Shown piece by piece: positions 19,043 to 60,277 of a stretch of 64,000 nt of DNA (its first letter is position 1; every line of letters begins with the position of its first letter). The translations under genes and the position numbers were made by a program. The stretch lies in the IMG/VR virus record IMGVR_UViG_3300028831_000484, positions 5,398 through 69,397 of that record. The stretch is one strand, 5' to 3'. Under the pieces are notes generated by a model, which saw only the letters and a program-made list of their open reading frames with translations, searched no databases and was not told the origin of the DNA. The DNA comes from a virus.

Positions 19043-19799
19043 TTACACCTTTCAGCTTCGGATTGAATCGAGCGTAATGTGGATCAACCTTCGCATGGCA
19101 CTTGGCGCACAATGTCACGCCGTTGCTCACGTCGTAGCGCAACTCCGGATGTGAGCGCCACGGCTTGATGTGGTGTACCATCACCTTCAATCCAGGTTCC
19201 TTGCAATCAGTGCAGGTCTTGTTGTCGCGGGCGAACACCGCCTCACGCCAAATGTCATACCCACATTGATTAAGTGCGCGTGTTGGTCTCTTGCCGTTGT
19301 GCGGAACGGTTGCGAAACGCGCCATGTGAATTGCTGACAACTTTCGCCTGTGTTCCAATGAACGCTTCTTTCCACGATTTGCTGCGGCAATCTTTTCTAC
19401 AGTGGCTGCATCAATAACGCGCCCTACACCTTTGCCTTTTCTGGCGGCAGACATCCTGGCGCGCACCTCCGCAGAATTCTTCCTACCACGGTTGGCCGCT
19501 ACAGTTTTGATAACAGCTTCCACTGGCTGTTTTTTGCCTTTGTTTACGGCACTAAGCTTCGCTCGCGTTTCCGGCGTGGGATGATAACCGCCTTTCGCCG
19601 CCATCGTCGCACGACGTTTGGCCACGGTCTCCGGTGCGATCTTCTTTCCTGTGCTGGCCGCACTAATCTTATCGCCCCATGTAATCACGCGGCCCTTCAA
19701 TCTGGCGCTCATCTTGGCACGGTATTCCGGTGATTTAACAACAGCGAGCAGTCGTTCTTTACGCAGTGCTTCCTTTTGTGGGTCTGACAGGGTAGGCAT
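19035..19799 (-). CDS. HNH endonuclease with NUMOD3-like repeats
   Basis: Repeats ETRAKLSAVNKGKK / EVRARMSAARKGK / EHRRKLSAIH; C-terminal CTDC...VHHIKPW...SNGVTLCAKCH. Confidence 0.85.
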   Translation of the reverse strand: MPTLSDPQKEALRKERLLAVVKSPEYRAKMSARLKGRVITWGDKISAASTGKKIAPETVAKRRATMAAKGGYHPTPETRAKLSAVNKGKKQPVEAVIKTVAANRGRKNSAEVRARMSAARKGKGVGRVIDAATVEKIAAANRGKKRSLEHRRKLSAIHMARFATVPHNGKRPTRALNQCGYDIWREAVFARDNKTCTDCKEPGLKVMVHHIKPWRSHPELRYDVSNGVTLCAKCHAKVDPHYARFNPKLKGVNA

Positions 19800-42673: not shown

Positions 42674-44370
42674 CCGGATGGCAAGGATGAAACGCCAGCA
42701 CCTGGAAGTTGCAAACCGGGGATGTTTGCCCGGACCCCCTGGCCCGCCCAAAAAACCCTTGGTCGTTCAACCTTCCCAACCTGCGCCCGGCCCGGCAAAA
42801 CGTGGTAACGCCATGGGGGGTACGTTAACGAATCCAAGGAGTGCAGGTGCGGAGACTTCTGGGGGCGAAGCCCAACAAAGGCGTCGTACTCATCGTCCTT
42901 CGGTTTTTTGGAAGGGAGACCCTGCAACATGTCGATGGTTTTTGACAAGCCTGCCGATACAAAAATCGTTTCGTACAACAACATATCAATCAACATTTGA
43001 ACGCGCTGCGGCTGGCTGTCGGCGCCTTTGGGGGCGGGCAACATTTTGAACGGGAAACCCTGTTCACGGCCGTAGTTTTGGATGTCCCGCGCATCAAAAG
43101 AACCGTTTGAATTCTTCGTCGTAAAGGCGGCTTCGTCGCAAACATGACGGAACACGTAGTTAAAACCTGCCGTTGGGTGATCCATCCAAAATCGCATCCG
43201 CTCAATCATTTCCTTAACGACGACGGGGTACGGTTTGTACAAGCCGACGAAATTCAGTTCGTCAAAGATTATCCAAATGATGGGTCTGTCCGGATCCTTC
43301 GTAGGGATGCGCTGCTCAAAATGAATCGAATAATTCTTCGGCCCAGGGTCGTGGCCAACAATGATTGGAAATCCACGGATCGGCACCAACCCGGTTTCCG
43401 CGATGGCATCACCCCGAACGTGAATTTCGGGAATGAAATACTCCTTGAACATCGCGTCCCCGGCCGGACGGTCAATCCATTCACCATCAATGAGTTGCCT
43501 GCGCTCGTAGGGGTCCCGCAACGTCATGTCCAGACGGCGAGTGTAATCAGGGGAGATGCGATGAAGATTCTCCGACAACGGGACGTGGTGAACGGAGATG
43601 TCCTTGTTGCCATCAATGGAGGGTTGAATGAGCGTTTGATACACCCAATGGCGCTGCCCCTTGGGGTTGCAGGAAGCCGTGAACTGCATCGGCGTATAAG
43701 TCCTCCTTCGACGGGACAACTGCAACGCCGGGTAAGTGTAGTATTCCGGCCCGCCGCAGTTCGTTAACTCATCCACGTAGACCAAGGACGGCGCCGGTCC
43801 TTTGATACGGTCCTCAACCTGGCCGGGGTGCGGGATGGATTTCAAAAGGACCTTGCTCCATCCGCCGTGCATGTTGGCAATCCACAGGTGACGGTCCTTC
43901 GAATTGGGATCCAACTTGGAATTCGTGTACTGCAACCCGATGCCGGAGTCCATGAGCTGCCCGGCCTTCGGGTGCTGCTTTCCGTCCAGCCAATCCGGGT
44001 ATCTGTTCCCGTCTCTCCACGAAGGAAGGACCAGGTCAACGAGGTCGTGCCACACGCCTTCGGCGCCAGCGGAAATGTAAACGGAAACGATAAGCCACAG
44101 CGCATTCCAGTTCTCGTAACAATGCCGAACCCCCTTCGTTAACATCCCGATAGACTTGCCAGAAGCCTTCTCCCCATAGGCCAGAACGACCATGTTCTGG
44201 TCTTCAAAAATCTTGCGCTGTGTCGGATTTAACGCCGGATACCAAGCTTGGTCATGCTTGATGGGCGGGACTTCCTGTTCGGGTGGTAACCACAGATTGG
44301 CGTCCTGGCCCGCGCCGTCCGCTTCATCCGCCAAGTGCTTCCAGTAATCAATGTCCTTGTCAACCCCCAT
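42664..44370 (-). CDS. terL: terminase large subunit
   Basis: Walker A AYGEKASGKS, Walker B LVYVDE, ASCNP motif, nuclease GHDPG...DEL...LDSLTY. Confidence 0.88.
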   Translation of the reverse strand: MGVDKDIDYWKHLADEADGAGQDANLWLPPEQEVPPIKHDQAWYPALNPTQRKIFEDQNMVVLAYGEKASGKSIGMLTKGVRHCYENWNALWLIVSVYISAGAEGVWHDLVDLVLPSWRDGNRYPDWLDGKQHPKAGQLMDSGIGLQYTNSKLDPNSKDRHLWIANMHGGWSKVLLKSIPHPGQVEDRIKGPAPSLVYVDELTNCGGPEYYTYPALQLSRRRRTYTPMQFTASCNPKGQRHWVYQTLIQPSIDGNKDISVHHVPLSENLHRISPDYTRRLDMTLRDPYERRQLIDGEWIDRPAGDAMFKEYFIPEIHVRGDAIAETGLVPIRGFPIIVGHDPGPKNYSIHFEQRIPTKDPDRPIIWIIFDELNFVGLYKPYPVVVKEMIERMRFWMDHPTAGFNYVFRHVCDEAAFTTKNSNGSFDARDIQNYGREQGFPFKMLPAPKGADSQPQRVQMLIDMLLYETIFVSAGLSKTIDMLQGLPSKKPKDDEYDAFVGLRPQKSPHLHSLDSLTYPPWRYHVLPGRAQVGKVERPRVFWAGQGVRANIPGLQLPGAGVSSLPSGSP

Positions 44371-44593
44371 GCGGTTTTTGTTCTTCGCCACTTCCGCCCA
44401 TGCACACATCGGCTAACATGGCGCGCAGGGCCAGTCGGGTTTTGGGAGTCCCGAAGTTGGTGATGATGATAGGCAGCTCGTCTCCGCCCGCGACGGCTGG
44501 CGTCAATGCAACCAGCACGTACCCGTCGTACAGTTCACTCAGGCGGCTTGAGGTCGCCTGCACCACCCGTTTCACCGTTTGTTCCGGATTCAT
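44360..44593 (-). CDS. small hypothetical protein
   Basis: ORF between putative TerS and TerL. Confidence 0.5.
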   Translation of the reverse strand: MNPEQTVKRVVQATSSRLSELYDGYVLVALTPAVAGGDELPIIITNFGTPKTRLALRAMLADVCMGGSGEEQKPHGG

Positions 44594-45314
44594 CCGTGAT
44601 CTCCTTGTGTTCTCCGTTGCCGTTGCCGTTCGTTATGGCCTTTTCCGCATTGTTACTATTAAACACGGCCGTTGCCCCCGTCTGCACGAGCACCTGCTGG
44701 CGCGCAGGCGGCGAAAAGCCTGGCTTGCCGTGCGACACCCCACCGTTCTGGTTCATCGAATCAAGTATCTGTTGAGACCGGGCACGCACGAGCATCATGG
44801 AGGCATACTCCGTGGAGCGGCGTCCGTATTCGCACTGCGCCCGCAGGACCATCTCATCGGCCAACCGCTTCCCGGAGCGCGCCAGCGTACCGTCAGGTCC
44901 AAATTCATCGGGATACGGTTCATTTTGCAACCGCTCCATCATGCTCAGCAACATCATCGACGCTTTAACCTGCCCGCCCGCCAACTGCGACAATGCTTGG
45001 ATGGAGTTTTTTAATTGGAACTGGTACAGCCGTGCGCCCAGCTCAGCTTCAGCGATGGAAACCTGCATGGATTGCAGGGCGGCTTTGTACTTCTCCCGGT
45101 CAACGGCGTCTTTAACCGTTGAAAGCGCGGCCTTATTCTTCAGCGCTGCCAAGTGCTTTTTGAGCTGGGGGACCTTTTTGCAGCGCAACTCCACGGTTTG
45201 TTTGGAGATCGCCAGGGATTCAGCGGCCACGCTGATGTTCCCGCCGCTGGCCGTTAACGCGAGCTGAATTGCGTAGTTTAACTCGTTGGCTTCCGGCTGT
45301 GTCATCTTTGACAT
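44535..45314 (-). CDS. putative terminase small subunit / HTH protein (start uncertain)
   Basis: ALTASGGNISVAAESLAISKQTV Fis-like HTH; first gene of the late module. Confidence 0.55.
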   Translation of the reverse strand: MSKMTQPEANELNYAIQLALTASGGNISVAAESLAISKQTVELRCKKVPQLKKHLAALKNKAALSTVKDAVDREKYKAALQSMQVSIAEAELGARLYQFQLKNSIQALSQLAGGQVKASMMLLSMMERLQNEPYPDEFGPDGTLARSGKRLADEMVLRAQCEYGRRSTEYASMMLVRARSQQILDSMNQNGGVSHGKPGFSPPARQQVLVQTGATAVFNSNNAEKAITNGNGNGEHKEITDESGTNGETGGAGDLKPPE

Positions 45315-45478
45315 TTCGTGCACTCCTATCATGTTGCCGTGTTGAAGGCTACCGAAAAAATAAGGCCGAAACGGATTTTCATTGACGAGTCCAAGCGGCT
45401 GGTAGTAAAAAAACCAGCACACCAGCGAGTCGGAAAAGCGTAGTCGCCTCCCGCCCCGCAGAAAAAAAGTGAACACCA

Positions 45479-46672
45479 ATGAACACCAGCACCACGCCAA
45501 GCAATAAGCCCGCACTCCTCAAAAAGGAGGCCCCAACACTGCCGGACCTGATTAAACAACCGCAGTACTCAGATCGTTTCAAAGAAGTCCTGCGCGAACG
45601 CGCTCCGCAATTCATGAGTTCAGTGATGCAGGCCGGGAATGCACTCGGGAAAGATTGCGATCCGAAATCAATCATCGCCTCCGCGATGACTGCCGCCATC
45701 CTTGACCTGCCAATTGATCGTAACTTGGGTTTCGCTTGGTTGGTTCCCTACAAGGCGGGAGGCACGAAATTTGCACAGTTTCAAATGGGCTACAAAGGAT
45801 ACATTCAACTGTCCCTTCGGACGGGTTCCTATCAACGCATGAACGCGCTGGCAGTGAACAAGGAAGTTATGACCGGCTACGATGAGGTAGGGGAACCCGT
45901 CCTTAACTGGAACGCATTCGATCCATCAAAGCCGGTCGTTGGTTACGCCTTCGCATGGAAGACGATTAACGGATTTCAAAAGATTTGTTTCTGGTCAAAG
46001 GCGAGGGTTGAAGAACACGCCAAGCGTTACTCGCAGTCGTATCGTTCCGGTGGAGAGTCGCCATGGAAAACGCACTTCGATGAGATGGGATTAAAAACTG
46101 TGATTGCCAACGAACTGCGACGTTGGGGCATGATGAGCGTGCAGATTCAACGCGCCATCGTAATGGATCAAGCCGTCCTGCGTGACTTGGACGCTGCTCC
46201 GGAATACATCGACGGGAGCGGAACCACCGTTGACATTGAACCTCCATCTAAGCCTGCCTTTGCTGAACCCGCGACGGATGTTGGTGCTCCATCCACGCAT
46301 GTAGAGGGCGCGAAGGCAGGCCCTCCCCCTACGAAGGCGCCAGAACAAGCCCCGGTGCAAGCCCAAGCACAACCACAACCGCAACCCGAAACAGCTCCCG
46401 CTGCGAAGGGACCGGATTCTACGACCGCGACACCTGCATCAACATCAACCCCCCAACAACCATCCGTCCAGGAGCAGGTGCGCGTGCGCATGGAAGCTGG
46501 CGGGGTAGCATACGAAGCCGCCGCCAAGTGGTTGAAAACGTCCGGACGCTGCGAGAACGCTTTAACGTTCAAGGGCTATGGCGAATGGCCGGATGAAGTT
46601 TGTAAGAAGCTGTTAACCGATAAGCGCGGCATAAATAGTGCCATTGTATTGCACGGAACAAAAGCACCGTGA
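45479..46672 (+). CDS. recT: RecT-family single-strand annealing protein
   Basis: CDPKSIIASAMTAAILDLP...LGFAWLVPY...QFQMGYKGYIQL. Confidence 0.9.
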   Translation: MNTSTTPSNKPALLKKEAPTLPDLIKQPQYSDRFKEVLRERAPQFMSSVMQAGNALGKDCDPKSIIASAMTAAILDLPIDRNLGFAWLVPYKAGGTKFAQFQMGYKGYIQLSLRTGSYQRMNALAVNKEVMTGYDEVGEPVLNWNAFDPSKPVVGYAFAWKTINGFQKICFWSKARVEEHAKRYSQSYRSGGESPWKTHFDEMGLKTVIANELRRWGMMSVQIQRAIVMDQAVLRDLDAAPEYIDGSGTTVDIEPPSKPAFAEPATDVGAPSTHVEGAKAGPPPTKAPEQAPVQAQAQPQPQPETAPAAKGPDSTTATPASTSTPQQPSVQEQVRVRMEAGGVAYEAAAKWLKTSGRCENALTFKGYGEWPDEVCKKLLTDKRGINSAIVLHGTKAP

Positions 46673-47153
46673 TTTTGTGGCAAGCGGCGAGGCACACCAT
46701 CAATATCGACATGGCCACAAACTTGGCGGTAAACCATCACCGACTTACAACTGCTGGAGCAACATGTTGAAACGGTGCGAGAATTCGAAGAACGACATGT
46801 TCCACAGGTACGGTGCTCGCGGAATTAAGGTCTGTAAACGCTGGCATGTTTTCAAAAACTTTCTCGATGACATGGGGCCAAAACCCAAAGGCAGAATGCT
46901 TGAACGCAAGGATAACAATGGCAACTACAACAAATCGAATTGCACTTGGGCAACCCCATTTGCTCAAGCCAATAACACCTCCAAGAACGTCCGAGTTGCG
47001 TACCTCGGCTATAATCTGACAATCAGCGAATGGGCCAGGGTTCTAGGTTTTAAGGTGGAAACACTTTGGGTTCGATTGTTCCAGTATAACTGGCCATTGA
47101 TTAGAGCGTTTGGCGAACCGATAAATTACGGAAGATGGCACAAGAAACCATGA
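46638..47153 (+). CDS. HNH homing endonuclease (YGGRG family)
   Basis: WSNMLKRC...YGARGIKVCKRW...LERKDNNGNY..SNCTWAT. Confidence 0.87.
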   Translation: MPLYCTEQKHRDFVASGEAHHQYRHGHKLGGKPSPTYNCWSNMLKRCENSKNDMFHRYGARGIKVCKRWHVFKNFLDDMGPKPKGRMLERKDNNGNYNKSNCTWATPFAQANNTSKNVRVAYLGYNLTISEWARVLGFKVETLWVRLFQYNWPLIRAFGEPINYGRWHKKP

Positions 47154-48289
47154 AGATCATAATTGATAAGGAACAATTCTCCGACGAACTCAGCGAACTT
47201 TCTTCAGTAGTGAAGGCTCGCACAACCCTCCCCGTTCTACGGTTCGCGCACTTGGAAGTTCAGGAAGGGCATTTGTTCATTACAGCCGATGATCTGGAGT
47301 GCCGGTTAACAAGATACGTAAAGGCTGTGGAGGGCACGGAATCAGTGGAAGGTGCATGCCTCCTGCCGTTCAAGCTGATTGGAGAATGGTTAAAGCAAGC
47401 CCAGGAAGGACCGCTTGTAATTGAAGGAACGGACAGCTCAGTTGCATTGAGGGCATCCGGGAACTTCAAGATACGTCTTCAGACTTGGGCACCAAAAGAT
47501 TTCCCGCCCGAACCGGAGGCCGGTACAACCAGCGTTCTACAAGCTGATTTGGCACCGTTGAAAACTGTTCGCTTGGCCGTTCATTCAAACGCTCAGGTTT
47601 CAAGACTCGAACTGCAAAGCGTCATCATTGAACGTGAAAAAGATCAGCTCATCGCCGTAGGCATGGACGGGAAGCGTCTATGCAGCCGAGTGTTCAATGG
47701 CGAATTAAAAACTGGATTTAATCGCTTGGAAATCCGACCGGAAGTTGTCGATATTGTTGCTGGCCTTGGCGAGGTTGCGGTGCAAGAAGGCGACAGAAAC
47801 TTCATCTTTACCGGCATCAAGAAACCCTTCCGACTGCTGGCACGCAAAACGGAAACCAAGGCGCCGGACTGGAGAAGAGTCGTGGACGGATGGAAGTATA
47901 TTGCCTATGCCAGCATGATGCGAGAGGACCTACTGGCGGCGATTACGAGCTGTCACTGCCTGCGCGGCTACGACGATGACCACGTTCGGTTCAACATTCA
48001 ATACAACGAGCCGGACGGAGGAGCAATCGTTATCAACGCAACGACGATGATGGGAGAAAGCGAAACAACCGTACCGGCCAAGGTTACCGATAAATTCCCG
48101 TCCGTGCTCCTGCCAACCGACCAAGTGCTGGAATTTTTGGAGCAGGAAAAAGACGAGGAACTTATTAAGCTAGCCTTCGTTGAGGACGGACGCATTGTGT
48201 CCTTCTTCGCGGGGAAGGATAAAAGCTATCACGTTTGCGGTTTCTTAACAACTCAACACCCGGATACGCATGCAGGAAAAAAACATTGA
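47135..48289 (+). CDS. dnaN: DNA polymerase III beta-clamp-like protein
   Basis: VVKARTTLPVLRFAHLEVQEGHLFITADDLE; VAGMDGKRL-like motif (AVGMDGKRL); PDWRRVV; ~380 aa. Confidence 0.78.
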   Translation: MAQETMKIIIDKEQFSDELSELSSVVKARTTLPVLRFAHLEVQEGHLFITADDLECRLTRYVKAVEGTESVEGACLLPFKLIGEWLKQAQEGPLVIEGTDSSVALRASGNFKIRLQTWAPKDFPPEPEAGTTSVLQADLAPLKTVRLAVHSNAQVSRLELQSVIIEREKDQLIAVGMDGKRLCSRVFNGELKTGFNRLEIRPEVVDIVAGLGEVAVQEGDRNFIFTGIKKPFRLLARKTETKAPDWRRVVDGWKYIAYASMMREDLLAAITSCHCLRGYDDDHVRFNIQYNEPDGGAIVINATTMMGESETTVPAKVTDKFPSVLLPTDQVLEFLEQEKDEELIKLAFVEDGRIVSFFAGKDKSYHVCGFLTTQHPDTHAGKKH

Positions 48290-49124
48290 ACTACTGCCGG
48301 TTGGAATTCATTACGACGTTCCGGAAACAGTGTACAGAGCGGATCCTGGACTCAACCAGTCATTGTTGAAGAAGTTCATGCAGGCTAATTCCCCTGCCCA
48401 CTTCCTTTGGGAGTCAACGCAACCCGATGAGCTGAAGGAAAAGGACTTCATTAAAATCGGGAATTTCGTGGATAACGAAGTGTTCCGGCCGGGAACCTCA
48501 AAGAATCGTTTCGTAGTATGGCCGGGCGAACGCAGGGGCAACGAATGGAAAGCATTCAAGGAAGCCAACAAGGACAAAGAAATCCTTAACGAAGACGAAA
48601 TGAATCGCGCCATTGGGGCCTACAACGCGTTGATGGCGCACACGGACGCCAAGCGATGGATTACGTCCTCCAAGCATCAAGTTGTCGTTATCGCCGTGCA
48701 CCCGGAGACCGGGATAAGGATGAAGGGACTGGTGGACCTGTTCCCGGATATTACGTATGGATGGATCGCGGATTTGAAAACCGCCGCCGATGCGAGCCTG
48801 CAATTCCATATTCAAGCGTTTAAAATGGGATATGCCATCCAAGCACGCTATTACATGGACCTGCTTCGGTTCAACGACGTGTTCATGAATAACTTCGCGT
48901 TTGTGGTTGTTGAGAATTCCCCATATCACGGCGTTCAGGTGCACCACTTCTCCTATGACCAGGAAGAAATTATTCGGGCCGGGAAGGACTACACAGCGGC
49001 CATGATTGCCTACGATGAGTGCCGTTCCACGAATACATGGCCGGGGTACAGCACGGCCTGGCAACGTATTACTTTTCCGCGATGGGCCTTGGCTGATCCT
49101 AAGCCGGTTGACGTGATCGAATAA
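48270..49124 (+). CDS. RecE/Exo VIII-like PD-(D/E)XK nuclease (DUF3799-like)
   Basis: YRADPGLNQSLLK, KGLVDL, IADLKT, GYAIQARYY; same operon as recT. Confidence 0.85.
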   Translation: MQEKNIELLPVGIHYDVPETVYRADPGLNQSLLKKFMQANSPAHFLWESTQPDELKEKDFIKIGNFVDNEVFRPGTSKNRFVVWPGERRGNEWKAFKEANKDKEILNEDEMNRAIGAYNALMAHTDAKRWITSSKHQVVVIAVHPETGIRMKGLVDLFPDITYGWIADLKTAADASLQFHIQAFKMGYAIQARYYMDLLRFNDVFMNNFAFVVVENSPYHGVQVHHFSYDQEEIIRAGKDYTAAMIAYDECRSTNTWPGYSTAWQRITFPRWALADPKPVDVIE

Positions 49125-49125
49125 C

Positions 49126-49752
49126 GTGAAAACCATTGCGCCAGGTGACAAATTCGGGCGATTAACAATCGTCTCAGTAATTCCAAGGAATAATGGAGAA
49201 AAGATTCTTTATCAACGATACTTGGCGCAGTGCGAGTGCGGAAGAACATCAAAGCCATTTCACTATGGTCTTTTGAGCGGGCAATCAAGAAGTTGTCGAT
49301 GCTTAGCCATTGATCGAAGCACAACTCATGGCATGACTCATTCCGTAGAATACAGAGTATGGGTGGACATGCACAAGCGATGCGGCAATCCAAGCTTATC
49401 ATATTTTAAGTATTACGGTGGACGCGGGATTAAGGTATGTAAACGATGGAAAAAATTTGAGAATTTTTTCGAAGACATGGGACCTCGGCCGTCACCAAAG
49501 CACCAACTTGAGCGAAACGACAACAGCGGAAATTACTGCAAGAAGAATTGCTGTTGGGCTACGAGCATCCAACAAGTCCAAAACAGAAGAACAACACTGC
49601 GCTTCACAAACGACGGTGTCACGTTAACACTGATGGAATGGTCGAAGAAAATCGGCATCGACTATCTTTGCTTATGGCATCGCATTACAAAATTGCACTG
49701 GAGTTTTGCAAAAGCGATCAATACGCCAGTTCGTAAGAAAGCCAAGCCATGA
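49126..49752 (+). CDS. HNH homing endonuclease (YGGRG family)
   Basis: YYGGRGIKVCKRW...LERNDNSGNYCKKNCCWAT. Confidence 0.87.
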   Translation: MKTIAPGDKFGRLTIVSVIPRNNGEKILYQRYLAQCECGRTSKPFHYGLLSGQSRSCRCLAIDRSTTHGMTHSVEYRVWVDMHKRCGNPSLSYFKYYGGRGIKVCKRWKKFENFFEDMGPRPSPKHQLERNDNSGNYCKKNCCWATSIQQVQNRRTTLRFTNDGVTLTLMEWSKKIGIDYLCLWHRITKLHWSFAKAINTPVRKKAKP

Positions 49753-50033
49753 TCCAAAAAGTCATCTGCATGACGTGCAACGAGACCAAGAAAGGGTTAT
49801 TCCCTGAAGACAGAGAATGCGGGTGGCGAGAGCGAATTGTTACAATTGAAATTAAAACACCCGAAACGTTTCCACTAGACAATGTCATGTGCGACGAGTG
49901 CAATGCGATACTACATGACGGGGTGCGAGCCAAGGGAATCACGAACTGGAACATCAACAAAGAAACACGACCTGGCAGATGGGAAGACATGTTCGGAGAA
50001 GTAATCTACGAAGACCATGAAGACGCTACATAA
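49749..50033 (+). CDS. hypothetical CxxC protein
   Basis: CMTC and CDEC motifs; ATGA overlap. Confidence 0.55.
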   Translation: MIQKVICMTCNETKKGLFPEDRECGWRERIVTIEIKTPETFPLDNVMCDECNAILHDGVRAKGITNWNINKETRPGRWEDMFGEVIYEDHEDAT

Positions 50034-50301
50034 CTCAACAGTAAGCGGAGCGAAGAAGAACGTGCCTGATTTAAAGGTTGTCGGCAACGGCGACACGTTT
50101 AAGCTGCTCTGCAAAGCTTATTCGCAGGATGAAGGCTGGATGAAATCGACAAAAGCAATGGAGATACCCGGCGTAGGGTGCGTTGTGCAGGTGACGACGC
50201 AACAGGGCGATAACGTAGCCGAGGCCGTCTGCTTTGTTCCCGGCGTTGAAATCCAGCAGGACATCAACGGCGGATGCAAGCTTGGCCAAATGACAAAATG
50301 A
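50017..50301 (+). CDS. conserved phage hypothetical protein
   Basis: FKLLCKAYSQDEGWMKSTKAMEIPGVGCVVQVTTQ, recalled from other phages. Confidence 0.65.
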   Translation: MKTLHNSTVSGAKKNVPDLKVVGNGDTFKLLCKAYSQDEGWMKSTKAMEIPGVGCVVQVTTQQGDNVAEAVCFVPGVEIQQDINGGCKLGQMTK

Positions 50302-50395
50302 CTTTTACAAGGCGAACGATGCCAATGTAAAAAGGAGCGGCGGCTGGTCCCGCTGATAGCCGTTGCTATACGGCGCCACGCCGCTCCCGCGATTT

Positions 50396-50953
50396 ATGAG
50401 TGATTACCTGGAAGTCCTAGTTGGAGCAGCGAAGTCTATTTCGGACATCTACAAAAAGCAGGCCGTCGTCATTCTATCATGGGACGAAGAGCACCAGGTG
50501 GTGCACACGACAACTTACGGGATTGAACTGGTTAATAAGTTTCGTGCTGCAAACTGGGGTGAAATTTGCACAACTGCCATTGTCGATCAACTTCGACATT
50601 TCAAACGAGAAATCGAAAATCTTCGCGCTGACGTGGATCGTTTTCACAAAGAACGCCAAGAGTTACGAACCATCCTTGGTGCGGGCGGCATGGACTTCGA
50701 AGGTGACAGCTTGTTGGTATCAGCGCAGAAAGCCATGGCGGAGATCATTAAACTTCGTTCCATGGAAACCAAGTGGAAGAAATCGTTGGACTGGTCTGAG
50801 CAGGCCAGGTTGGAATGGTTGAAGGAATTCGACGGTTACAGGAAACGCATTGCGGAGCTGGAAGGGTTCATGAACCGCGCACTGCATGACCAAACGCCCG
50901 GACTGCTGTGCAAACCAGACTGCCCGCGCTGTGCCTACGAGAAAACGAAATGA
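50396..50953 (+). CDS. coiled-coil hypothetical protein
   Basis: Heptad-rich; C-terminal CKPDCPRC. Confidence 0.6.
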   Translation: MSDYLEVLVGAAKSISDIYKKQAVVILSWDEEHQVVHTTTYGIELVNKFRAANWGEICTTAIVDQLRHFKREIENLRADVDRFHKERQELRTILGAGGMDFEGDSLLVSAQKAMAEIIKLRSMETKWKKSLDWSEQARLEWLKEFDGYRKRIAELEGFMNRALHDQTPGLLCKPDCPRCAYEKTK

Positions 50954-51243
50954 CTGAATACACCCACACCTGCTGCGTATGCGGACACGTTTGGGAGCAA
51001 CCGCCAAAAGACTGGAAAAAGACGCGCACTGCGGTCACGGTCAACAAGGACGGGCCGTATTGCGAAGGATGCAGAACCGGGATTGAGTTTTTGAGGATTG
51101 CAAGGGTAAGAAAAAAAGCACCGATTGTTTGGTTGAACGATCTAGCCGAAAGAGAACTGCTCAATGAATACGAATTTAAATACGAACAAGCTACGACCCG
51201 ATCTGCCACCATTGACACCACGGATAGCCAAGCTGCCGATTGA
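50950..51243 (+). CDS. hypothetical Zn-finger-like protein
   Basis: CCVCGH...YCEGC; ATGA overlap. Confidence 0.55.
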   Translation: MTEYTHTCCVCGHVWEQPPKDWKKTRTAVTVNKDGPYCEGCRTGIEFLRIARVRKKAPIVWLNDLAERELLNEYEFKYEQATTRSATIDTTDSQAAD

Positions 51244-51252
51244 TGAGCGATC

Positions 51253-51849
51253 ATGAGGGACGGCAGACAAAAACACCCACTCTACCAGACGTGGCGCGGG
51301 ATGCTAAGACGCTGTGAGAAGCCAACCGCAACCGGCTACAAAAACTACGGTGGACGTGGCATTGAGGTCTGTGAACGCTGGCACAACTTTTGGATGTTCA
51401 TTGAAGACATTGGACCGAAGCCAGGATCTGACTACCAGCTTGAACGAAAGAACAACGACGGCAATTACGAACCAGGCAACGTCAAGTGGGCGACAACTAA
51501 AGAGCAGACCAGGAACGCAAGATACAACAAACCAATGACAGTTGCCGGAACAACGAAGATCATGTCGGATTGGGCTAACGGCAATGGCATTCCGAAAAGC
51601 ACACTGTTCAATCGGCTGAAACGCGGACTGTCGCACGAGCAAGCCATCATGAAGCCAATACAATTCAAGGCCGAAGCCGGTTCAGTGGTTCCGCTCGGGG
51701 CGCGAGCGATTGCACTTGAACGAGGCATAAAAATTGAAACACTCCACAGCCGAATGCGCCGTGGATGGTCGTTGCACGATGCACTTAACGCGCCAGTAGG
51801 ACCACAACACGGAGGAAATTATGGAACAAAAATACAAAGTCAGAGCTGA
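51253..51849 (+). CDS. HNH homing endonuclease (YGGRG family)
   Basis: YGGRGIEVCERW...LERKNNDGNYEPGNVKWAT. Confidence 0.87.
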   Translation: MRDGRQKHPLYQTWRGMLRRCEKPTATGYKNYGGRGIEVCERWHNFWMFIEDIGPKPGSDYQLERKNNDGNYEPGNVKWATTKEQTRNARYNKPMTVAGTTKIMSDWANGNGIPKSTLFNRLKRGLSHEQAIMKPIQFKAEAGSVVPLGARAIALERGIKIETLHSRMRRGWSLHDALNAPVGPQHGGNYGTKIQSQS

Positions 51850-52474
51850 TCTACCACCAGCTCCGCCACGAATTGCAAAGCTACCAGTGGACGAACGCGG
51901 GTTTTACATACCGTGGTTCGTGCCATTTATTAACGGTAAACCTGAATTCCGCATGGCCGATGCTGAGAAATGGATCGAAGCAATCCAAAAGCACCTGTGT
52001 TGGACATGTGGGCAACCGATGGGAAGGTTCAGTTCGTTTGTGCTCGGTCCTATGTGTTCCATCACCCGCACCACATCCGAACCGCCCCTGCACCAGGAGT
52101 GCGCGCAGTGGACCGTTAAGGGATGTCCGTTCCTGTCGAAGCCGCAAATGGTGCGCCGGGAGGACGCGTTGACGGAAGCCAACAAGGGCAACGTGGCCGG
52201 TGAAATGATTGAGCGCAACCCCGGCGCCACGGCAATATGGACGACAAGGGAGTTCAAACTTTTTAGCGACAACAAGAGAAAGCCATTGATTCGGGTTGGT
52301 GAACCAACCGAAGTAACCTGGTGGCGGCTGGGCAGAGAAGCAACACGGGAAGAAGTGCTCGAAAGCGTTAACTCCGGCTATCCGATACTGGCTGCAACAT
52401 GCAAGGGGGATCCGGAATGTTTAAGTGATTTACACGAGGCTCGGCAACGTGCGATTAAATATCTACCTAAATGA
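51821..52474 (+). CDS. conserved phage Cys-rich protein
   Basis: PWFV..GKPEFR...LCWTCG...GPMC...EPPLHQECA...CPFL. Confidence 0.7.
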   Translation: MEQKYKVRADLPPAPPRIAKLPVDERGFYIPWFVPFINGKPEFRMADAEKWIEAIQKHLCWTCGQPMGRFSSFVLGPMCSITRTTSEPPLHQECAQWTVKGCPFLSKPQMVRREDALTEANKGNVAGEMIERNPGATAIWTTREFKLFSDNKRKPLIRVGEPTEVTWWRLGREATREEVLESVNSGYPILAATCKGDPECLSDLHEARQRAIKYLPK

Positions 52475-52668
52475 CAACCGTACCAGGCATTCAACAAATC
52501 GGTTGCAAGATATGGGCGGAGCGTCTTCCATCAGGCGATATTCAGCTCAACGCAGAGTTCGCTGACGATGGGACGTGGTGCAGGGACTATTTTCGGTTCC
52601 CGCGTATTTCAGCAGAAGATGCACACGAACTTGCCGAGTTTATTTGTAATACGGAAAGGATTGATTAA
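52471..52668 (+). CDS. small hypothetical protein
   Basis: Chained ORF. Confidence 0.55.
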   Translation: MTTVPGIQQIGCKIWAERLPSGDIQLNAEFADDGTWCRDYFRFPRISAEDAHELAEFICNTERID

Positions 52669-52670
52669 CT

Positions 52671-52928
52671 ATGGCAAAGTTATCACCAGAAGAAGAAGCA
52701 ACGCGCAGGTTCTGCAAAGCCTACTGGGCTTGGCTGCGAAGGGACCTTGTGGAGGAACCACTGCCGGTAGACTTCGGCGTTGACCCGCAGTTCGGTGAAG
52801 CAGTGGCCAGGCAGATTCACATAGAATTCGAAGATCGTGTTATGCAGAAGACTTTGGCTAACCTGCCTCAACGGCCAGTCAAGAGAAGCGCTAGCAACAA
52901 TTCAGACGAACGCAAACCGATGTTGTAG
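52671..52928 (+). CDS. small hypothetical protein
   Basis: Chained ORF; its 3' end overlaps a guide-like unit. Confidence 0.55.
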   Translation: MAKLSPEEEATRRFCKAYWAWLRRDLVEEPLPVDFGVDPQFGEAVARQIHIEFEDRVMQKTLANLPQRPVKRSASNNSDERKPML

Positions 52929-53151
52929 CATTCAAAATACAAGTTAGCAACATAGCCACAGTGAACAAGCACGAGCTACAGGAGGAATACCAGTATCGCT
53001 ACGACGAGCGGCTTGGTATCTTTTGCGGAAATAACGAACCTACCGTTGAACAAAAAGCCATTGCCACCGAAGAGGCAGAGCAATGGTTAGAGGAGGAGAT
53101 GGAACGAAGTCAAATGCCGGGATAGCAACAAACCTGTTATACGTCGCGCCA
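52877..53151 (+). repeat. TIGR-like mini-array 4 (3 dispersed units)
   Basis: agtca-N10-tagcaaca at 52877/52892 and 53108/53123; attca-N10-tagcaaca at 52930/52945. Confidence 0.65.
52961..53125 (+). CDS. 54-aa acidic hypothetical protein (not in the ORF track)
   Basis: GTG start; NKHELQEEYQYRYDERLGIFCG...; lies between guide-like units. Confidence 0.5.
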   Translation: MNKHELQEEYQYRYDERLGIFCGNNEPTVEQKAIATEEAEQWLEEEMERSQMPG

Positions 53152-53175
53152 TTAACTTGGCGCGTTTCTTTTACA

Positions 53176-53391
53176 TCACCCACCGGTTGCTGGCGGAGGA
53201 GGCCCGCCAAACGCTGAAGGAGGATTGTCCGCCATCCAATCATCGTAACTTTTATTGACCCGCGCACGCAACGCTTCCCAATCGGCCTGCGTTGGCTCGC
53301 CGCTGGCAAATAAAACCTTAAACTCGGCCACCAGCTCCGGCGCCAGCTTCAACGCAGCCTCGATGATCTGTAACGCCAAAATTGCATTCAT
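53176..53391 (-). CDS. small hypothetical protein
   Basis: ATGA overlap with the upstream gene. Confidence 0.6.
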   Translation of the reverse strand: MNAILALQIIEAALKLAPELVAEFKVLFASGEPTQADWEALRARVNKSYDDWMADNPPSAFGGPPPPATGG

Positions 53392-53768
53392 GGTTTTGAT
53401 TGGACGAAGGCTTTAATCACGGAGACCAGATCGGCCTGCGCGTTCATAACCAGCGTAATGGTGTTTTGAAGGCTGGATGTGTCGTTCGTTTTGACGCCAG
53501 CCTCGGCCAGGTCGATAAGCAGGTTCATCGACTTTTGATACTTACCGTAGGCACCCCGGACCTTGTCCTGTTGTTCAGGGGTTGCCTTGCCGGAGTCAAC
53601 GTAGGTCTTCCACAAGGTCATCGCCGCCTCCACGGACAACACGGCGGCTCCGGAAGTCTTGTAGCTCGTTTGTTGAAAGGATTTACAACCTTGTGGCGCC
53701 AGGCCCAGGAACCCAACGCAAAACAAAAGGAGCACCGATAGGACCACCGAACGAGCTTGAATCTTCAT
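53388..53768 (-). CDS. putative lipoprotein / exported helical protein
   Basis: Hydrophobic leader ending ..LAPQGC; preceded by the palindrome. Confidence 0.6.
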   Translation of the reverse strand: MKIQARSVVLSVLLLFCVGFLGLAPQGCKSFQQTSYKTSGAAVLSVEAAMTLWKTYVDSGKATPEQQDKVRGAYGKYQKSMNLLIDLAEAGVKTNDTSSLQNTITLVMNAQADLVSVIKAFVQSKP

Positions 53769-53773
53769 GCACT

Positions 53774-53795
53774 GTCACCCTAAACTTAGGGGATG
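53774..53795. promoter_or_regulatory. 22-bp palindrome copy (degenerate second arm)
   Basis: gtcaccct-aaactt-aggggatg, 5 nt before the ATG at 53768. Confidence 0.55.
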
Positions 53796-54098
53796 AACAG
53801 TGTCAATGTTAAAGCTTGGTGGCGGTTAATTTCAATAACCTGTCCGACTTGGAGGCAAAAGTTCAGGCTTTTTCTGCACATGATGAAGCGGGCGCGAGCC
53901 GGTTTCGTAACTCCAAGCATCAGACGGCAACGCCTGGCGGTCTGTGAACAATGCCCGATTTATTGCCCTGAACTCCAAAGTTGTGGCACAATCGAAAGCA
54001 AGCTTGGCTGCAAATGTTACGTGCCGATCCTGACTTGGTTCAAGGGCAGTTGCTGGGCGAAAACAGATTTCCCTGAATCGGAGCTGGGTTGGGATTGA
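53793..54098 (+). CDS. Cys-rich small phage protein
   Basis: RLAVCEQC...CG...GCKC...CW pattern. Confidence 0.55.
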   Translation: MNSVNVKAWWRLISITCPTWRQKFRLFLHMMKRARAGFVTPSIRRQRLAVCEQCPIYCPELQSCGTIESKLGCKCYVPILTWFKGSCWAKTDFPESELGWD

Positions 54099-54900
54099 TT
54101 TTCCAAGCCAACCCCCTGAGTATTCGACTAACGTTTCCGCCATTGTTGTTGAACCTTTTGGCAATAGCGTCAACAGTCCAACCGTCTTTTCTTAGTTGGT
54201 GCATCTGTCTAACGATTTCCACACTAAGCGCGGTTTTGCTTTGATTGTAGTTCTGTTCGGCACGAGTTGCAAAACGACAGTTGCCGGGTTCATAGTCCCC
54301 ATCGTTGTCAATCCTCTCGATTGTTAAGTCGGGCTTCCAGCCGTGATTTTTCGCCCAAGCGTAAAACACATCGAAGCTGCACGCCCACTGCTCGCAGACC
54401 TTTATTCCACGCAGATAATAATACTTTCGTTCGCCCTCATTTGCCTTTGAGGAACACCTTCTTAACATCCCTCGCCAGATCCGCTTTAACTTTTTGTAGT
54501 CAGGCAGGAGCACTGGCTTTGGTGGTTTTACTTCTGGAATCTTTTTGGGTCTCAACTCCCACGCTTTCTTTTGCGCGCAATTGAAGCATCTAACGCTGAC
54601 TTTCTTTGGACTAGAATATGTAACCAGTTTTTCCTTCCCACAATCAACACATCGAACAATATACGTCCAGTGCTTCCCAACTTGGTTGGCTCGCTGAACA
54701 CCATCAATGAAAATCCGCCTGTGTGACGAACTGCAAGCGTGCGAGCAGTAAAGTCGATGCCTGAAGTGTTCTATCGGTTCGATTCGTCCCGAAGATAATC
54801 GGCCGCGAGAAAAAGATTTGCCGCAATGCTGGCAAATTTTGTCAGGCAATGGAATTAGTGCTGACACTTGGCTGGGAGTAGGCGAATTCCATTTGGTCAT
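54040..54900 (-). CDS. HNH homing endonuclease (YGGRG-like) with N-terminal Zn fingers
   Basis: CQHCGK..YCSHAC; RGIKVCEQW; TIERIDNDGDYEPGNCRFAT. Confidence 0.85.
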   Translation of the reverse strand: MTKWNSPTPSQVSALIPLPDKICQHCGKSFSRGRLSSGRIEPIEHFRHRLYCSHACSSSHRRIFIDGVQRANQVGKHWTYIVRCVDCGKEKLVTYSSPKKVSVRCFNCAQKKAWELRPKKIPEVKPPKPVLLPDYKKLKRIWRGMLRRCSSKANEGERKYYYLRGIKVCEQWACSFDVFYAWAKNHGWKPDLTIERIDNDGDYEPGNCRFATRAEQNYNQSKTALSVEIVRQMHQLRKDGWTVDAIAKRFNNNGGNVSRILRGLAWKINPNPAPIQGNLFSPSNCP

Positions 54901-55222
54901 CCTTTTGGAACGAAGCGGCCGGGGAAGCTTTAAGGTTGGCTCCGTAGAGCGCGCCGAATTTGTTAACTCGACGTAGCAAGGTAGCCCTCCTTGCCCTCAT
55001 CACCTCCCCGGCCTTTTTCAGCTCACACCAGACGGGGTGTACAACCCGGCACCCTTCACAGTATTGAGCCGGATCTTCGAAGACCTGCCAGCAGTTCGGA
55101 TCGTTGGTGCACGGATGATCAGCGCGCAAGTCGTTCCTTTGTTTACGAAACGCGGAAACTTTTTCGTAAGCTTCCCCGAAGGCGATGCCCGCCTTGGCAA
55201 TGTTAATGAGTTCTTTGTTCAT
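54842..55222 (-). CDS. hypothetical protein
   Basis: Starts immediately after array 2. Confidence 0.55.
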   Translation of the reverse strand: MNKELINIAKAGIAFGEAYEKVSAFRKQRNDLRADHPCTNDPNCWQVFEDPAQYCEGCRVVHPVWCELKKAGEVMRARRATLLRRVNKFGALYGANLKASPAASFQKDDQMEFAYSQPSVSTNSIA

Positions 55223-55224
55223 GA

Positions 55225-56030
55225 TGACTACGCTCTGCCATTTTGTTGCGAATGCTGCTCCTGGCTATCGAACAACCATATTGTTGCTATCACTGTCTCT
55301 GTCTTTTAACTATTCATTCTTGGGCTTTGTTGCCATTTCCACTTGCGGCTGCGTGCTACGAGCTTGTTGCGATTTGCCGTTATAACTACTTCATTACCGT
55401 GTTGCTACTTGGTGCTGTGGTTACGAGCTTTCGCCTTGTTGCTATTCAGCATGATGCCTTCGTGCACACTGTTTGTTGCGAACTGGTTGTTTGACTGCGT
55501 TCGGGATTTTTGTTGCCATCTGCTGCTACGACTTCATACGACGTTCCGGTTGCAAACCTCTTCTGTGATTGCGTGCCTTCTCTCTGTTGCCATCGGGCTT
55601 AGTGACTTCATTCGCGGCAAATGTTGCCATCACAGTCTGCGGCTGCGTGCTCATTATATGTTGCCATCAGGATTCATGACTTCGTGCTCGGTGAACGTTG
55701 CTATCGACACCCTTAACTACGCTCTTCGGCATTGTCGCCATCATTATTCTTGGCTGCACTCGTCTGGTCTGTTGCGATTCAAGCGCGTGATTAACGCATG
55801 AGCTTTCTGTCGCTATTTGCTACGTTGGCTTCGTTCGCTCAGGGATCTTGTCGCTATCCAGCATATTGGCTGCGCGTGTAACGTTCTTGTTGCGATGCTC
55901 CTTCATGACTACGTTTTATGAACACGGCATTATTGTTGCGATTCCTCACCATGGCTACGCTTTGTGCTCCTGTTGCAATTTCCCATCGTAACTACGTTCG
56001 GCCAATTTGTTGCGATCTTGTGATGTGACT
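55225..56030 (-). repeat. TIGR-like dual-repeat guide array 2 (21 units)
   Basis: TGT(T/C)GC-type motif on + at 55244,55282,55328,55365,55400,55437,55474,55511,55548,55585,55622,55659,55696,55733,55770,55808,55849,55888,55934,55971,56008; mostly 37-nt period; same consensus as array 1. Confidence 0.9.
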
Positions 56031-56040
56031 GGGTTATGGG

Positions 56041-56412
56041 TTACGATGGAGGCTGACGTAAACGTTGCAGCCTGTCAATCTCCGCCGCGATTAAAGCTCC
56101 GGCTTTGATCAAGTTGTAAATCGGGTCTGGAGACGGTTTCCACCACTCAGACCCCCATGGCCAGGTTACCTGCTCTGGCTTGCATTCCGAATACTCCATC
56201 GGGTAACAATTCTCGTCTATGCCGCGTGCCGAATTGAGCGTGTGGAGAACATGCGTTCCGTCCGGTCCAAGCGCGTAACACGCAGCGGCAATGCGAAGCT
56301 GCCCGTCGAAGTGTTCGTTGTCGTGCTCCTCCGTCCATCCTTCGCCTCCATGGTCCTTCGGGGCCTTTTGGCGTTCTCGTTCTGCTGCGATGAGTTCGAT
56401 TCCAGTTTTCAT
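56041..56412 (-). CDS. conserved phage protein (IAAERxRQ..EGWT.EHD family)
   Basis: ELIAAERERQ...EGWTEEHDNEH..GQLRIAAACYA...LIKAGALIAAEIDRLQR. Confidence 0.75.
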   Translation of the reverse strand: MKTGIELIAAERERQKAPKDHGGEGWTEEHDNEHFDGQLRIAAACYALGPDGTHVLHTLNSARGIDENCYPMEYSECKPEQVTWPWGSEWWKPSPDPIYNLIKAGALIAAEIDRLQRLRQPPS

Positions 56413-56678
56413 AAAGCCGGTGGTTCGGGTTCTTGGGGGAACGGCAAAACGCCGCAATGCAGGATCCTGTCCTTGCCGAATTCGGCCAAGCCCAAACAGG
56501 CCATCGCTCCGCCGTGCCAATAGCAGGTGTGCGCGTTGCACCGGTCCCCCTTCTCATCCTCTGTCTCCCAGTCCAAAGCAATGAGCACATGCTCGAAGTG
56601 TTCGCCAAGCAGGGAAAAGGCTTTGCGGATCGCATCCCGCTGGGCAGGCGTCATGTCATCGGGGTATTTGGCGCTCAT
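56409..56678 (-). CDS. hypothetical protein
   Basis: ATGA-chained. Confidence 0.6.
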   Translation of the reverse strand: MSAKYPDDMTPAQRDAIRKAFSLLGEHFEHVLIALDWETEDEKGDRCNAHTCYWHGGAMACLGLAEFGKDRILHCGVLPFPQEPEPPAL

Positions 56679-56998
56679 GGCTCAGCCCAAGATTCTCCAC
56701 GAACTGCCTTGTCGAACAGTTCTTCAGCCCGCGCAAGAAGAACCGGCGCTTTGGCGTATTTACCATATTCAGTATGGCCCGCTAATATCTCGCGCTCAGG
56801 TAGTTGGCTGCCGTCTGGAAAGGTTCTGGCTTTTGCAATGCGAATCTTGTGCACCTCGTAATACTTCACCGGCCCTTCAATGCTTTCGTAGATGACCGCC
56901 TTTCGGCAGGCAGAAATCTTCAATAGCCTGAGCCGATATTTGCCATTCAAGAATTCCAGTGGGACTTTCGTTTTATCGACCTGGTTCGTTGTTCTCAT
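56675..56998 (-). CDS. hypothetical protein
   Basis: ATGA-chained; YEV...FPDG...E..GKYA pattern. Confidence 0.6.
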   Translation of the reverse strand: MRTTNQVDKTKVPLEFLNGKYRLRLLKISACRKAVIYESIEGPVKYYEVHKIRIAKARTFPDGSQLPEREILAGHTEYGKYAKAPVLLARAEELFDKAVRGESWAEP

Positions 56999-57024
56999 AA
57001 AAACGCTAAAAACGCTAAAAACGC
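56998..57024. repeat. 3 x 9-bp tandem repeat TAAAAACGC
   Basis: Exact copies at 56998, 57007, 57016, abutting a start codon. Confidence 0.8.
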
Positions 57025-60069: not shown

Positions 60070-60277
60070 CGGCCGCATCGCATCGGTTGTTGCAATTCCC
60101 GTGCTTGTCTTGGCCGGGCGCGCTTCAATGTATTGGTTGTCGCTACTGCCTACGTTGATTACTCGAACAAGGTGTTTGTCGCTATCCCGTCGAATGTTTG
60201 AACGAACTGTCTGGTTGTTGCCATCTCGTCTCATGACTGAACGAACGCCAAGTGTGTTGCTATTGAGCTTTCTGTCT
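60070..60277 (-). repeat. TIGR-like dual-repeat guide array 3 (5 units)
   Basis: Loop motif on + at 60088,60138,60177,60216,60255 (spacing 50,39,39,39); edge variant TTCGTTC. Confidence 0.85.

Follow-up and report, generated by a model that had tools for sequence, protein, structure and literature searches.

The last gene junctions of a RecT/beta-clamp/PD-(D/E)XK operon in a soil phage are the sites of three units (U1, U2, and U3) that follow the repeat grammar of the phage's own TIGR arrays. We consider it probable, with modest confidence, that they are guide units of the phage's TIGR-TasA system, set singly at junctions, embedded in an operon, and cut from its mRNA by TasA. This reading is drawn from sequence comparisons, on which basis a guide function is plausible. 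The dual-repeat TIGR-TasA system itself is known; what is new is the placement of its units, single, at gene ends, and far from tas. The phage is a 77,647-bp (77.6-kb) soil virus record in IMG/VR, rated complete by CheckV. The window, that is, the whole stretch of 64,000 nucleotides that was analyzed, comprises bases 5398 to 69397 of the record, and positions refer to it unless given as genome positions.

Unit grammar of the phage and the three units

The motif AGTCA-N10-TAGCAACA was found 18 times in the window at up to one mismatch, against 0.04 copies expected from dinucleotide shuffles. These copies, together with further units recovered by a matrix scan, form regular runs at 632-1034 on the + strand and at 55229-56030 and 60073-60277 on the - strand. 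Each unit consists of an edge repeat (ACG-nn-AGYCA), about 10 variable nt, a loop repeat (T-n-GCAACA), and again about 10 variable nt, with a period of 35 to 39 nt. The last two "variable" positions preceding each repeat are semi-conserved (G, then A/N), and thus the true spacers are about 8 nt long. According to the column information content of 47 units, edge and loop repeats have common box-C/D-like termini, as both end in CA and are preceded by G-A/N, then N-N-G. This unit layout corresponds to the dual-repeat architecture that Faure et al. 2025 describe for TIGR (PMC12045711).

Four arrays are built in this way. A0 (genome 3918-4145) is a further run of units just 5' of the window, and A1 (632-1034, +), which follows tas directly with 11 dual-repeat units, is the reference for the repeat grammar. 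The same grammar is used by A2 (55229-56030, -), which lies in the convergent replication operon and has about 21 units. A3 (60073-60277, -) is made up of 5 units and separates the replication initiator from the primase-helicase. The arrays of the phage fill intergenic gaps in the sense of the neighboring genes and do not overlap them; U1-U3 represent the same gap filling, done with one or two units. Two further features were observed around the arrays. The last unit of A3 (60073-60125, -) is bracketed by a perfect 12-bp G+C palindrome (GCGCGCCCGGCC ... GGCCGGGCGCGC), so that a dual-repeat unit sits in the loop of a long hairpin, an arrangement reminiscent of stem-loop TIGR, with no T-run after it. 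Furthermore, the phage has four paralogous genes resembling HNH_3-type homing endonucleases (window 49126-49752, 51253-51849, and 54040-54900 (-); genome 4157-4912) with the common motif YKNYGGRGI-x-VCERW, two of which adjoin TIGR arrays or tas and two of which lie inside the recombination operon.

U1 (52871-52919, +) is composed of a 5' edge ACGGCC-AGTCA (52871-52881), spacer A (52882-52891), the loop TAGCAACA (52892-52899), spacer B (52900-52909), and a near-complete 3' edge ACGCA-AACCG (52910-52919). U2 (52930-52972, +), 16 nt after U1, is degenerate: its loop TAGCAACA is intact (52945-52952), ATTCA stands in place of AGYCA, and its 3' edge (GAACA-AGCAC) has lost the box-C-like CA, which is now AC. 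U3 (53104-53145, +) has a full 5' edge ACGA-AGTCA, spacer A (53113-53122), the loop TAGCAACA (53123-53130), spacer B (53131-53140), and a truncated 3' edge ACGTC (53141-53145). All three lie on the + strand, which is the sense of the surrounding operon. In line with the two exact units and one single-mismatch unit of the original prediction, AGTCA-N10-TAGCAACA is exact at 52877-52899 and 53108-53130, with a one-mismatch ATTCA copy at 52930-52952, all on the + strand. The edges that it named, ACGCA after U1 and ACGTC after U3, are real, and complete 5' edges were found in both units as well. U1 and U3 thereby have the two recognizable edges of a dual-repeat unit and show the box-C/D-like terminus pattern, which the altered 3' edge of U2 does not.

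The units were scored in a whole-genome scan with a 23-column matrix derived from 42 array units of the phage's four TIGR arrays, from which U1-U3 had been left out. U1 reached 23.0 bits, U2 19.3 bits, and U3 24.4 bits. True array units ranged from 14.8 to 27.6 bits, and the maxima of 50 shuffled genomes averaged 14.4 bits, with an extreme of 19.8. Because of these scores relative to the shuffled genomes, we regard the units as real and not as chance matches. The value of U2 is borderline genome-wide, as it is near the shuffle extreme, but the unit lies only 16 nt from U1 and on the same strand.

U1-U3 differ from the array classes described for TIGR systems. Tandem arrays run head to tail, most often with 5 to 15 units; here, U1 and U2 are 53 nt apart, and U3 follows 178 nt further on. 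Since they are spaced irregularly, with a coding-like ORF between them, we treat U1-U3 as units and not as an array. None of the locations of tas-adjacent arrays (upstream, downstream, or inside tas) applies to them. They also differ from the stem-loop TIGR class, as no inverted repeat brackets U1, U2, or U3 and the sole hairpin is that of the terminator after U3. The layout runs from the ORF85 core through U1, the ORF85 stop, U2 over the ORF54 start, the ORF54 body, and U3 to the terminator. A possible fourth solitary unit (genome 69936-69975, +; 15.0 bits) was noticed 539 nt past the window end. It reads AATCA, 10 nt, TAACAACA, 10 nt, and AGT-AGTCA directly into an ATG start and is preceded by two small hairpins after the stop of the upstream ORF.

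The six spacers of U1-U3 are unique, the strings that they have in common with any other spacer being at most 7 nt long, which is the noise level. A recent duplication of U1-U3 from an array was ruled out, as their spacers are not copies of array spacers. In the whole spacer set, 14 pairs share at least 7 nt, about twice the 6.7 expected from shuffled spacers. Individual cases of sharing include the 9-nt string GAAAGCTCA, present in a spacer B of A2 (55830) and in a spacer A of A3 (60277), and two adjacent units of A0 (genome 4032 and 4070) with an identical spacer B. The published cleavage geometry comprises an 8-nt 3' overhang and a C-5 rule (PMC12045711), and from it we derived that a target should read spacer A and then, after 0 to 2 nt, the reverse complement of spacer B. 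When the phage's own genome was searched with all 47 units, no 8+8 nt match was found at up to one mismatch in either strand geometry with gaps of 0 to 4 nt. For U1-U3, there was no such match in the phage genome at up to two mismatches and no excess over control geometries. Given the lack of an 8+8 nt self-match, the targets would lie elsewhere than in the phage genome.

Overlapped genes and the predicted terminator

The units overlap two small ORFs on the + strand. ORF85 (52671-52928) has its stop (52926-52928) downstream of U1 and its conserved core at residues ~14 to 62; U1 falls within its last 17 to 19 codons, and residues 67 to 85 are read from U1 and its edges. ORF54 (52961-53125) opens with a GTG in spacer B of U2 (52961), lacks a Shine-Dalgarno sequence, and is bracketed by U2 and U3, its stop being the TAG of the U3 loop (53123-53125). 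Consequently, the overlap with ORF 3' ends that had been claimed for the locus holds for U1, in the tail of ORF85, and for U3, at the stop of ORF54, but U2 overlaps the start of ORF54.

Coding potential was scored with a three-periodic second-order Markov model trained on 32 long ORFs of the phage genome. Pieces of real genes 165 nt long scored 0.136 +/- 0.13 bits/codon, and 212 spurious ORFs of 45 to 90 aa scored -0.21 +/- 0.12 bits/codon, with a maximum of 0.116. ORF85 before U1 reached 0.178 bits/codon, a value attained by none of the 212 spurious ORFs, and ORF54 before U3 reached 0.242 bits/codon, with -0.17 and -0.48 in its other frames; the two alternative frames are clearly negative in both ORF bodies. 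On the contrary, the ORF85 tail under U1 scored -0.208 bits/codon with no frame preference, and the array sequence of A3 reached 0.06 bits/codon in its best frame. Gene-like codon statistics are therefore found in the bodies of ORF85 and ORF54 and are absent from the parts beneath the units. A single frameshifted gene spanning ORF85 and ORF54 was set aside, as ORF54 has a coding signal of its own. Frame 2 is open only from the TAG of the U1 loop and offers no canonical start codon upstream of 52961.

An exhaustive HMMER search of 1.84 billion representative proteins returned about 33 small homologues of ORF85 at E <= 1e-3 (best 3.8e-14, 51 to 58% identical) and two additional matches to very large proteins that look off-family. 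The homologues align only over residues ~3 to 68, and the conserved core stops at about residue 62, before U1. Together with the core part of ORF85 (52671-52874), they define an unannotated family of phage proteins of 51 to 100 aa with the core F-x2-AYW-x-W-x-RR ... EP-x-P ... FG ... ARQ-x-H-x-EFE. In two relatives (L124, 390-692; L125, 274-498), the ORF85 gene belongs to a tightly packed operon, in which its stop codon overlaps the start codon of the gene that follows, without any unit between them; in L125, a gene with a DnaA C-terminal domain is found just downstream of the homologue. Since its homologues end before U1, ORF85 is an ordinary operon gene with a variable tail read from a putative guide unit. 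ORF54, which was predicted by JGI's gene caller, has no homologue besides itself, and neither Pfam nor PHROG returned anything for ORF65, ORF85, or ORF54. Overall, ORF85 and ORF54 look like real genes, judging by codon statistics and family alignment, with the units in their non-conserved ends.

[quoted passage not shown] The hairpin has 7 pairs, 6 of them G-C, and is present in both the minimum free energy (MFE) and centroid folds. No other terminator-like site in 44000-57000 is as strong, and downstream of RecT it is the only strong one on the + strand. The last base of the truncated edge of U3 is also the first base of the hairpin. TIGR arrays have been described as ending in a truncated edge and then a terminator (PMC12045711), and U3 with its predicted terminator is of this published array-end form.

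TasA and few-unit sites in other phages

The window begins within the phage's only tas gene, of which it holds the 3' two-thirds (1-633, +). The whole gene (genome 4858-6030, 390 aa) starts 539 nt before the window and ends exactly where A1 begins. The distance from tas, ending at 633, to U1-U3, starting at 52871, is about 47 to 52 kb, on the same strand and in a different operon. The Tas protein was identified through PHROG ("transposase"), Transposase_20, and the PDB. Its match to Pfam Transposase_20 (3e-7) is above threshold, no nuclease family was found in it (no Pfam match to HNH or RuvC), and the Pfam Nop model PF01798 has no match anywhere in the genome. By itself, the protein matches 9MTY (TaTasR), the TasR RNP of Faure et al., at 1.5e-5 in the PDB. 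A profile of the 28-member family (277 match positions) matches 9MTY at 2e-22, TasH at 7e-13, and the IS621 transposase at 2e-4, with matches that begin after the nuclease domains of the solved Tas proteins. The family-profile and Pfam results therefore indicate a protein of the TasA type, with a Nop-like domain and free of a nuclease, and TasA is the presumed partner of U1-U3. TasA proteins have been described as RNA-guided transcriptional repressors (bioRxiv 10.64898/2026.09.09.750476).

The SpTasH protein cuts pre-tigRNA in the edge repeat with a Tyr/His loop and without metal ions (PMC13421893; Xu et al. 2026). The C-terminal loop of TasA, with the motif PP-x-P-Y348 ... G-H358-x-H360, appears to resemble it, as Y348, H358, and H360 occupy the loop that in SpTasH contains the catalytic Y289 and H296, an equivalence by position and not by structural alignment. 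H358 is invariant in the 28 homologues, and the position of Y348 is Tyr in 19 and Phe in 9 of them. Because about one-third of the TasA family has Phe and not Tyr there, self-processing is not certain for this clade.

Recurrence of such sites was assessed via the family alignment in 80 TasA-bearing viral loci, covering 10 kb on each side of tas, with a de novo detector that combines periodic 7-mers, a per-locus matrix, and a threshold above shuffles. Arrays were detected in 71 of the 80 loci. At least three separate array sites were present in 6 loci, and isolated clusters of 1 to 3 hits, separated from all others by 150 nt or more, were present in 11 of the 71; these counts are approximate because some detector hits are repeat halves. 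All multi-site and isolated clusters are on the tas strand. A closer view comes from a phage with a TasA 37% identical to ours on a 130-kb contig (L098 as a locus, G002 as a whole record). Mini-arrays of 1 to 2 units extend there from the stop of a small gene to the next start, one repeat (GTAACCA) makes up the last codons of a gene, and the fillers mostly do not overlap coding sequence. In the whole record, further mini-arrays lie 19 kb and 34 kb from tas (one with 3 units, the other with about 6), each reaching from a stop codon to the next ATG. In another record (G003), two units form a site 21 kb away from tas. Operon-embedded guide sites of a single or a few units, in part remote from tas, thus make up a recurrent minority layout. 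In G002, the conserved motif GTG(T)GAT-yw-TTAATC(A) flanks the mini-arrays of 1 to 2 units at gene junctions (L098 5130-5145, 5555-5572, and 8880-8895) and may be a boundary or processing signal.

Relatives of the locus itself were sought at several levels. Megablast of 51000-55200 against phage records returned nothing, and there was no close relative of the U1-U3 locus in the viral, metagenome, or genome collections searched. Relatives of the neighboring 217-aa gene on viral and metagenome contigs are 41 to 53% identical and come without ORF65, ORF85, ORF54, or the motif. The Tas protein alone found no relative among viral contigs; the family alignment was required. Searching viral contigs with the array pattern yielded the same repeat family only in IMGVR_UViG_3300017492_000043, where all units stand in one array and none are scattered. 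The repeats in this low-GC record of 40 kb (L019 500-1000, -; G001 18997-19566) are near-identical (GA-ACG-AGYCA and TAGCAACA). Among 185,579 prokaryote genomes, the pattern gave 10 matches, none of them an array, against about 9 expected by chance.

Candidate readings and known systems

From these elements, we infer how U1-U3 would be transcribed, processed, bound, and directed to a target. The polycistronic RNA of the operon would have them at its 3' end, with transcription stopping at the hairpin at 53145-53172. TasA dimers would bind each unit via the box-C/D-like ends of its edge and loop repeats, and the C-terminal Tyr/His loop would cut within the edge repeats, freeing guides of ~36 to 38 nt, most likely from U1 and U3 and doubtfully from the degenerate U2. 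The guides would then direct the nuclease-free TasA to DNA whose strands match spacers A and B, outside the phage genome, and TasA would block it. Since the cuts would fall in the ORF85 tail and at the ORF54 start and stop, guide release and translation of ORF85 or ORF54 would be mutually exclusive on any one transcript. Minimal arrays of 1 to 3 units are processed in Escherichia coli when given full edge repeats (PMC12045711); U1 and U3 have complete 5' edges and scores in the mid-range of true array units. Because U3 has only a truncated 3' edge, its 3' end would have to be set by the terminator or by trimming. A point against the guide reading is that ribosomes may occlude a unit that lies inside a translated tail.

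The strongest alternative is that U1-U3 are decaying remnants of a former small terminal array, eroded and overwritten by coding sequence, with no working guides now. ORF85 would have been extended through stop loss, and ORF54 would have been inserted or have arisen between units 2 and 3. Some decay is real: the edges of U2 are degenerate (ATTCA; AGCAC), which leaves its score near the shuffle extreme, and U1 and U2 are spaced at 53 nt instead of ~37 (35 to 39) nt. A faint loop-less skeleton can also be followed after U2 (an edge-like AGCAC, 10 nt, a non-loop octamer, 10 nt, and ACGAC), and the orphan ORF54, which may be an insertion between U2 and U3, is flanked by the edge-like GAACAAGCAC and GAACGAAGTCA. 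However, U1 and U3 match the best array units and keep their full 5' edges, U3 retains the exact array-end form next to the terminator, and the body of ORF54 scores as coding, well above the best frame of A3. Moreover, single or double intergenic units recur in distant TasA phages, which argues for sites that are maintained and not accidental. We therefore regard decay as a serious possibility, but an unlikely one. The original prediction had offered both a decayed array invaded by an ORF and single guides at gene junctions; the latter agrees with the ORF85 family, its unit-less relatives, the codon statistics, and the fillers elsewhere, and the former fits less well.

A second alternative is that the units are cis-regulatory TasA sites, at which TasA cuts the operon mRNA, takes away the ORF85 stop as well as the start and stop of ORF54, and so tunes or shuts off both genes as it accumulates, guide activity being secondary. 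The predicted cuts do fall in a tail close to a stop and on a start and a stop codon, and no spacer target was found in the phage's own genome, which was the one searched. Additionally, Xu et al. raise a coupling of tigRNA maturation and translation for intragenic units in tas. Nevertheless, the lack of a target is common to all units of the phage and not specific to U1-U3, its other arrays are intergenic without gene overlap, and the fillers of G002 are mostly free of coding overlap. We consider cis-regulation improbable, since it is without specific support. Finally, the motif is short, but chance matches, or a repeat element unrelated to TIGR, are highly improbable, as three matches on one strand lie within 275 nt and agree beyond the 13 searched bases, including the edge halves, Rfam has no known RNA family at this locus, and only 0.04 copies with up to one mismatch and ~0.002 exact copies are expected per window, the latter following from the arithmetic (2 x 64000 / 4^13) and being lower still than the ~0.03 first estimated.

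In the guide reading, U1-U3 combine features that have been described separately. With the dual-repeat arrays of Faure et al. 2025, Science (PMC12045711), which belong to a system first described in 2025, they share the box-C/D-like repeat ends, the truncated last edge with a terminator, and a nuclease-free Nop-domain Tas. They differ in that they are not tandem, are split 2+1 by a gene, lie ~47 to 52 kb from tas in an unrelated operon, and overlap coding ends. The intragenic tigRNAs of Xu et al. 2026 (bioRxiv 10.64898/2026.09.09.750476), e.g., that of BlTasA, are similar in being units inside an unbroken ORF, in a poorly conserved or disordered part. Those are mostly of the stem-loop class and inside tas, whereas U1-U3 are of the dual-repeat class, in the tails of unrelated small genes, and remote. 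The engineered minimal arrays of Faure et al. 2025 (Fig. 2C-D) indicate that 1 to 3 full-edge units suffice for processing and loading. These are laboratory constructs with their own promoter; U1-U3, on the contrary, are natural and ride on an mRNA.

Single guide units away from their effector gene have parallels in other systems. Viral mini-CRISPR arrays and solitary repeats are guide loci of one or two units on mobile elements, away from the effector gene. They carry CRISPR repeats and depend on host-supplied Cas effectors, whereas the effector of U1-U3 is encoded by the same phage. Box C/D snoRNAs are single dual-guide RNAs that are bound by a Nop-domain protein and excised from longer host-gene or polycistronic transcripts, and their task is to direct RNA methylation, in which fibrillarin and L7Ae K-turns take part. 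U1-U3, in contrast, would work with TasA and are predicted to target DNA. The relation between box C/D snoRNAs and TIGR is discussed in PMC12045711.

Published TIGR surveys place arrays upstream, downstream, or inside tas; the intragenic units that they describe are confined to tas itself and belong mostly to the stem-loop class. The literature searched holds no description of solitary dual-repeat units in unrelated genes remote from tas, an absence that is not proof. One Tas branch has been reported without a detectable array in densely packed viral genomes (bioRxiv 10.64898/2026.09.09.750476). It is tempting to generalize, although we find this broader idea doubtful, that dual-repeat tigRNA units could work as single operon-embedded genes overlapping the ends of protein genes anywhere in phage genomes, with TasA carving guides from mRNAs, tying the guide repertoire to operon transcription, and switching off the overlapped genes. 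If this were true generally, it would explain the "arrayless" Tas lineages in dense viral genomes, and searches of the tas neighborhood would miss part of the guide repertoire.

The locus bears on the questions of the natural targets of TIGR-Tas, the origin of its arrays, and its regulation. If the units are processed, the catalogues understate both the size and the scatter of guide repertoires, the timing of guides can be set by the carrier operon, and it becomes feasible to study how guide loci arise at gene junctions. If they are not processed, the locus is a snapshot of array decay. The exact sequence of ORF85 was found on 7 soil-metagenome contigs, all 100% identical to the window, and no diverged copy was among them. 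The identity extends over 51794-53944 on the seven contigs, which belong to three or more soil metagenome projects (ENA PRJEB10725, ERZ272627xx, JGI 3300039435); this points either to a widespread phage or to related samples.
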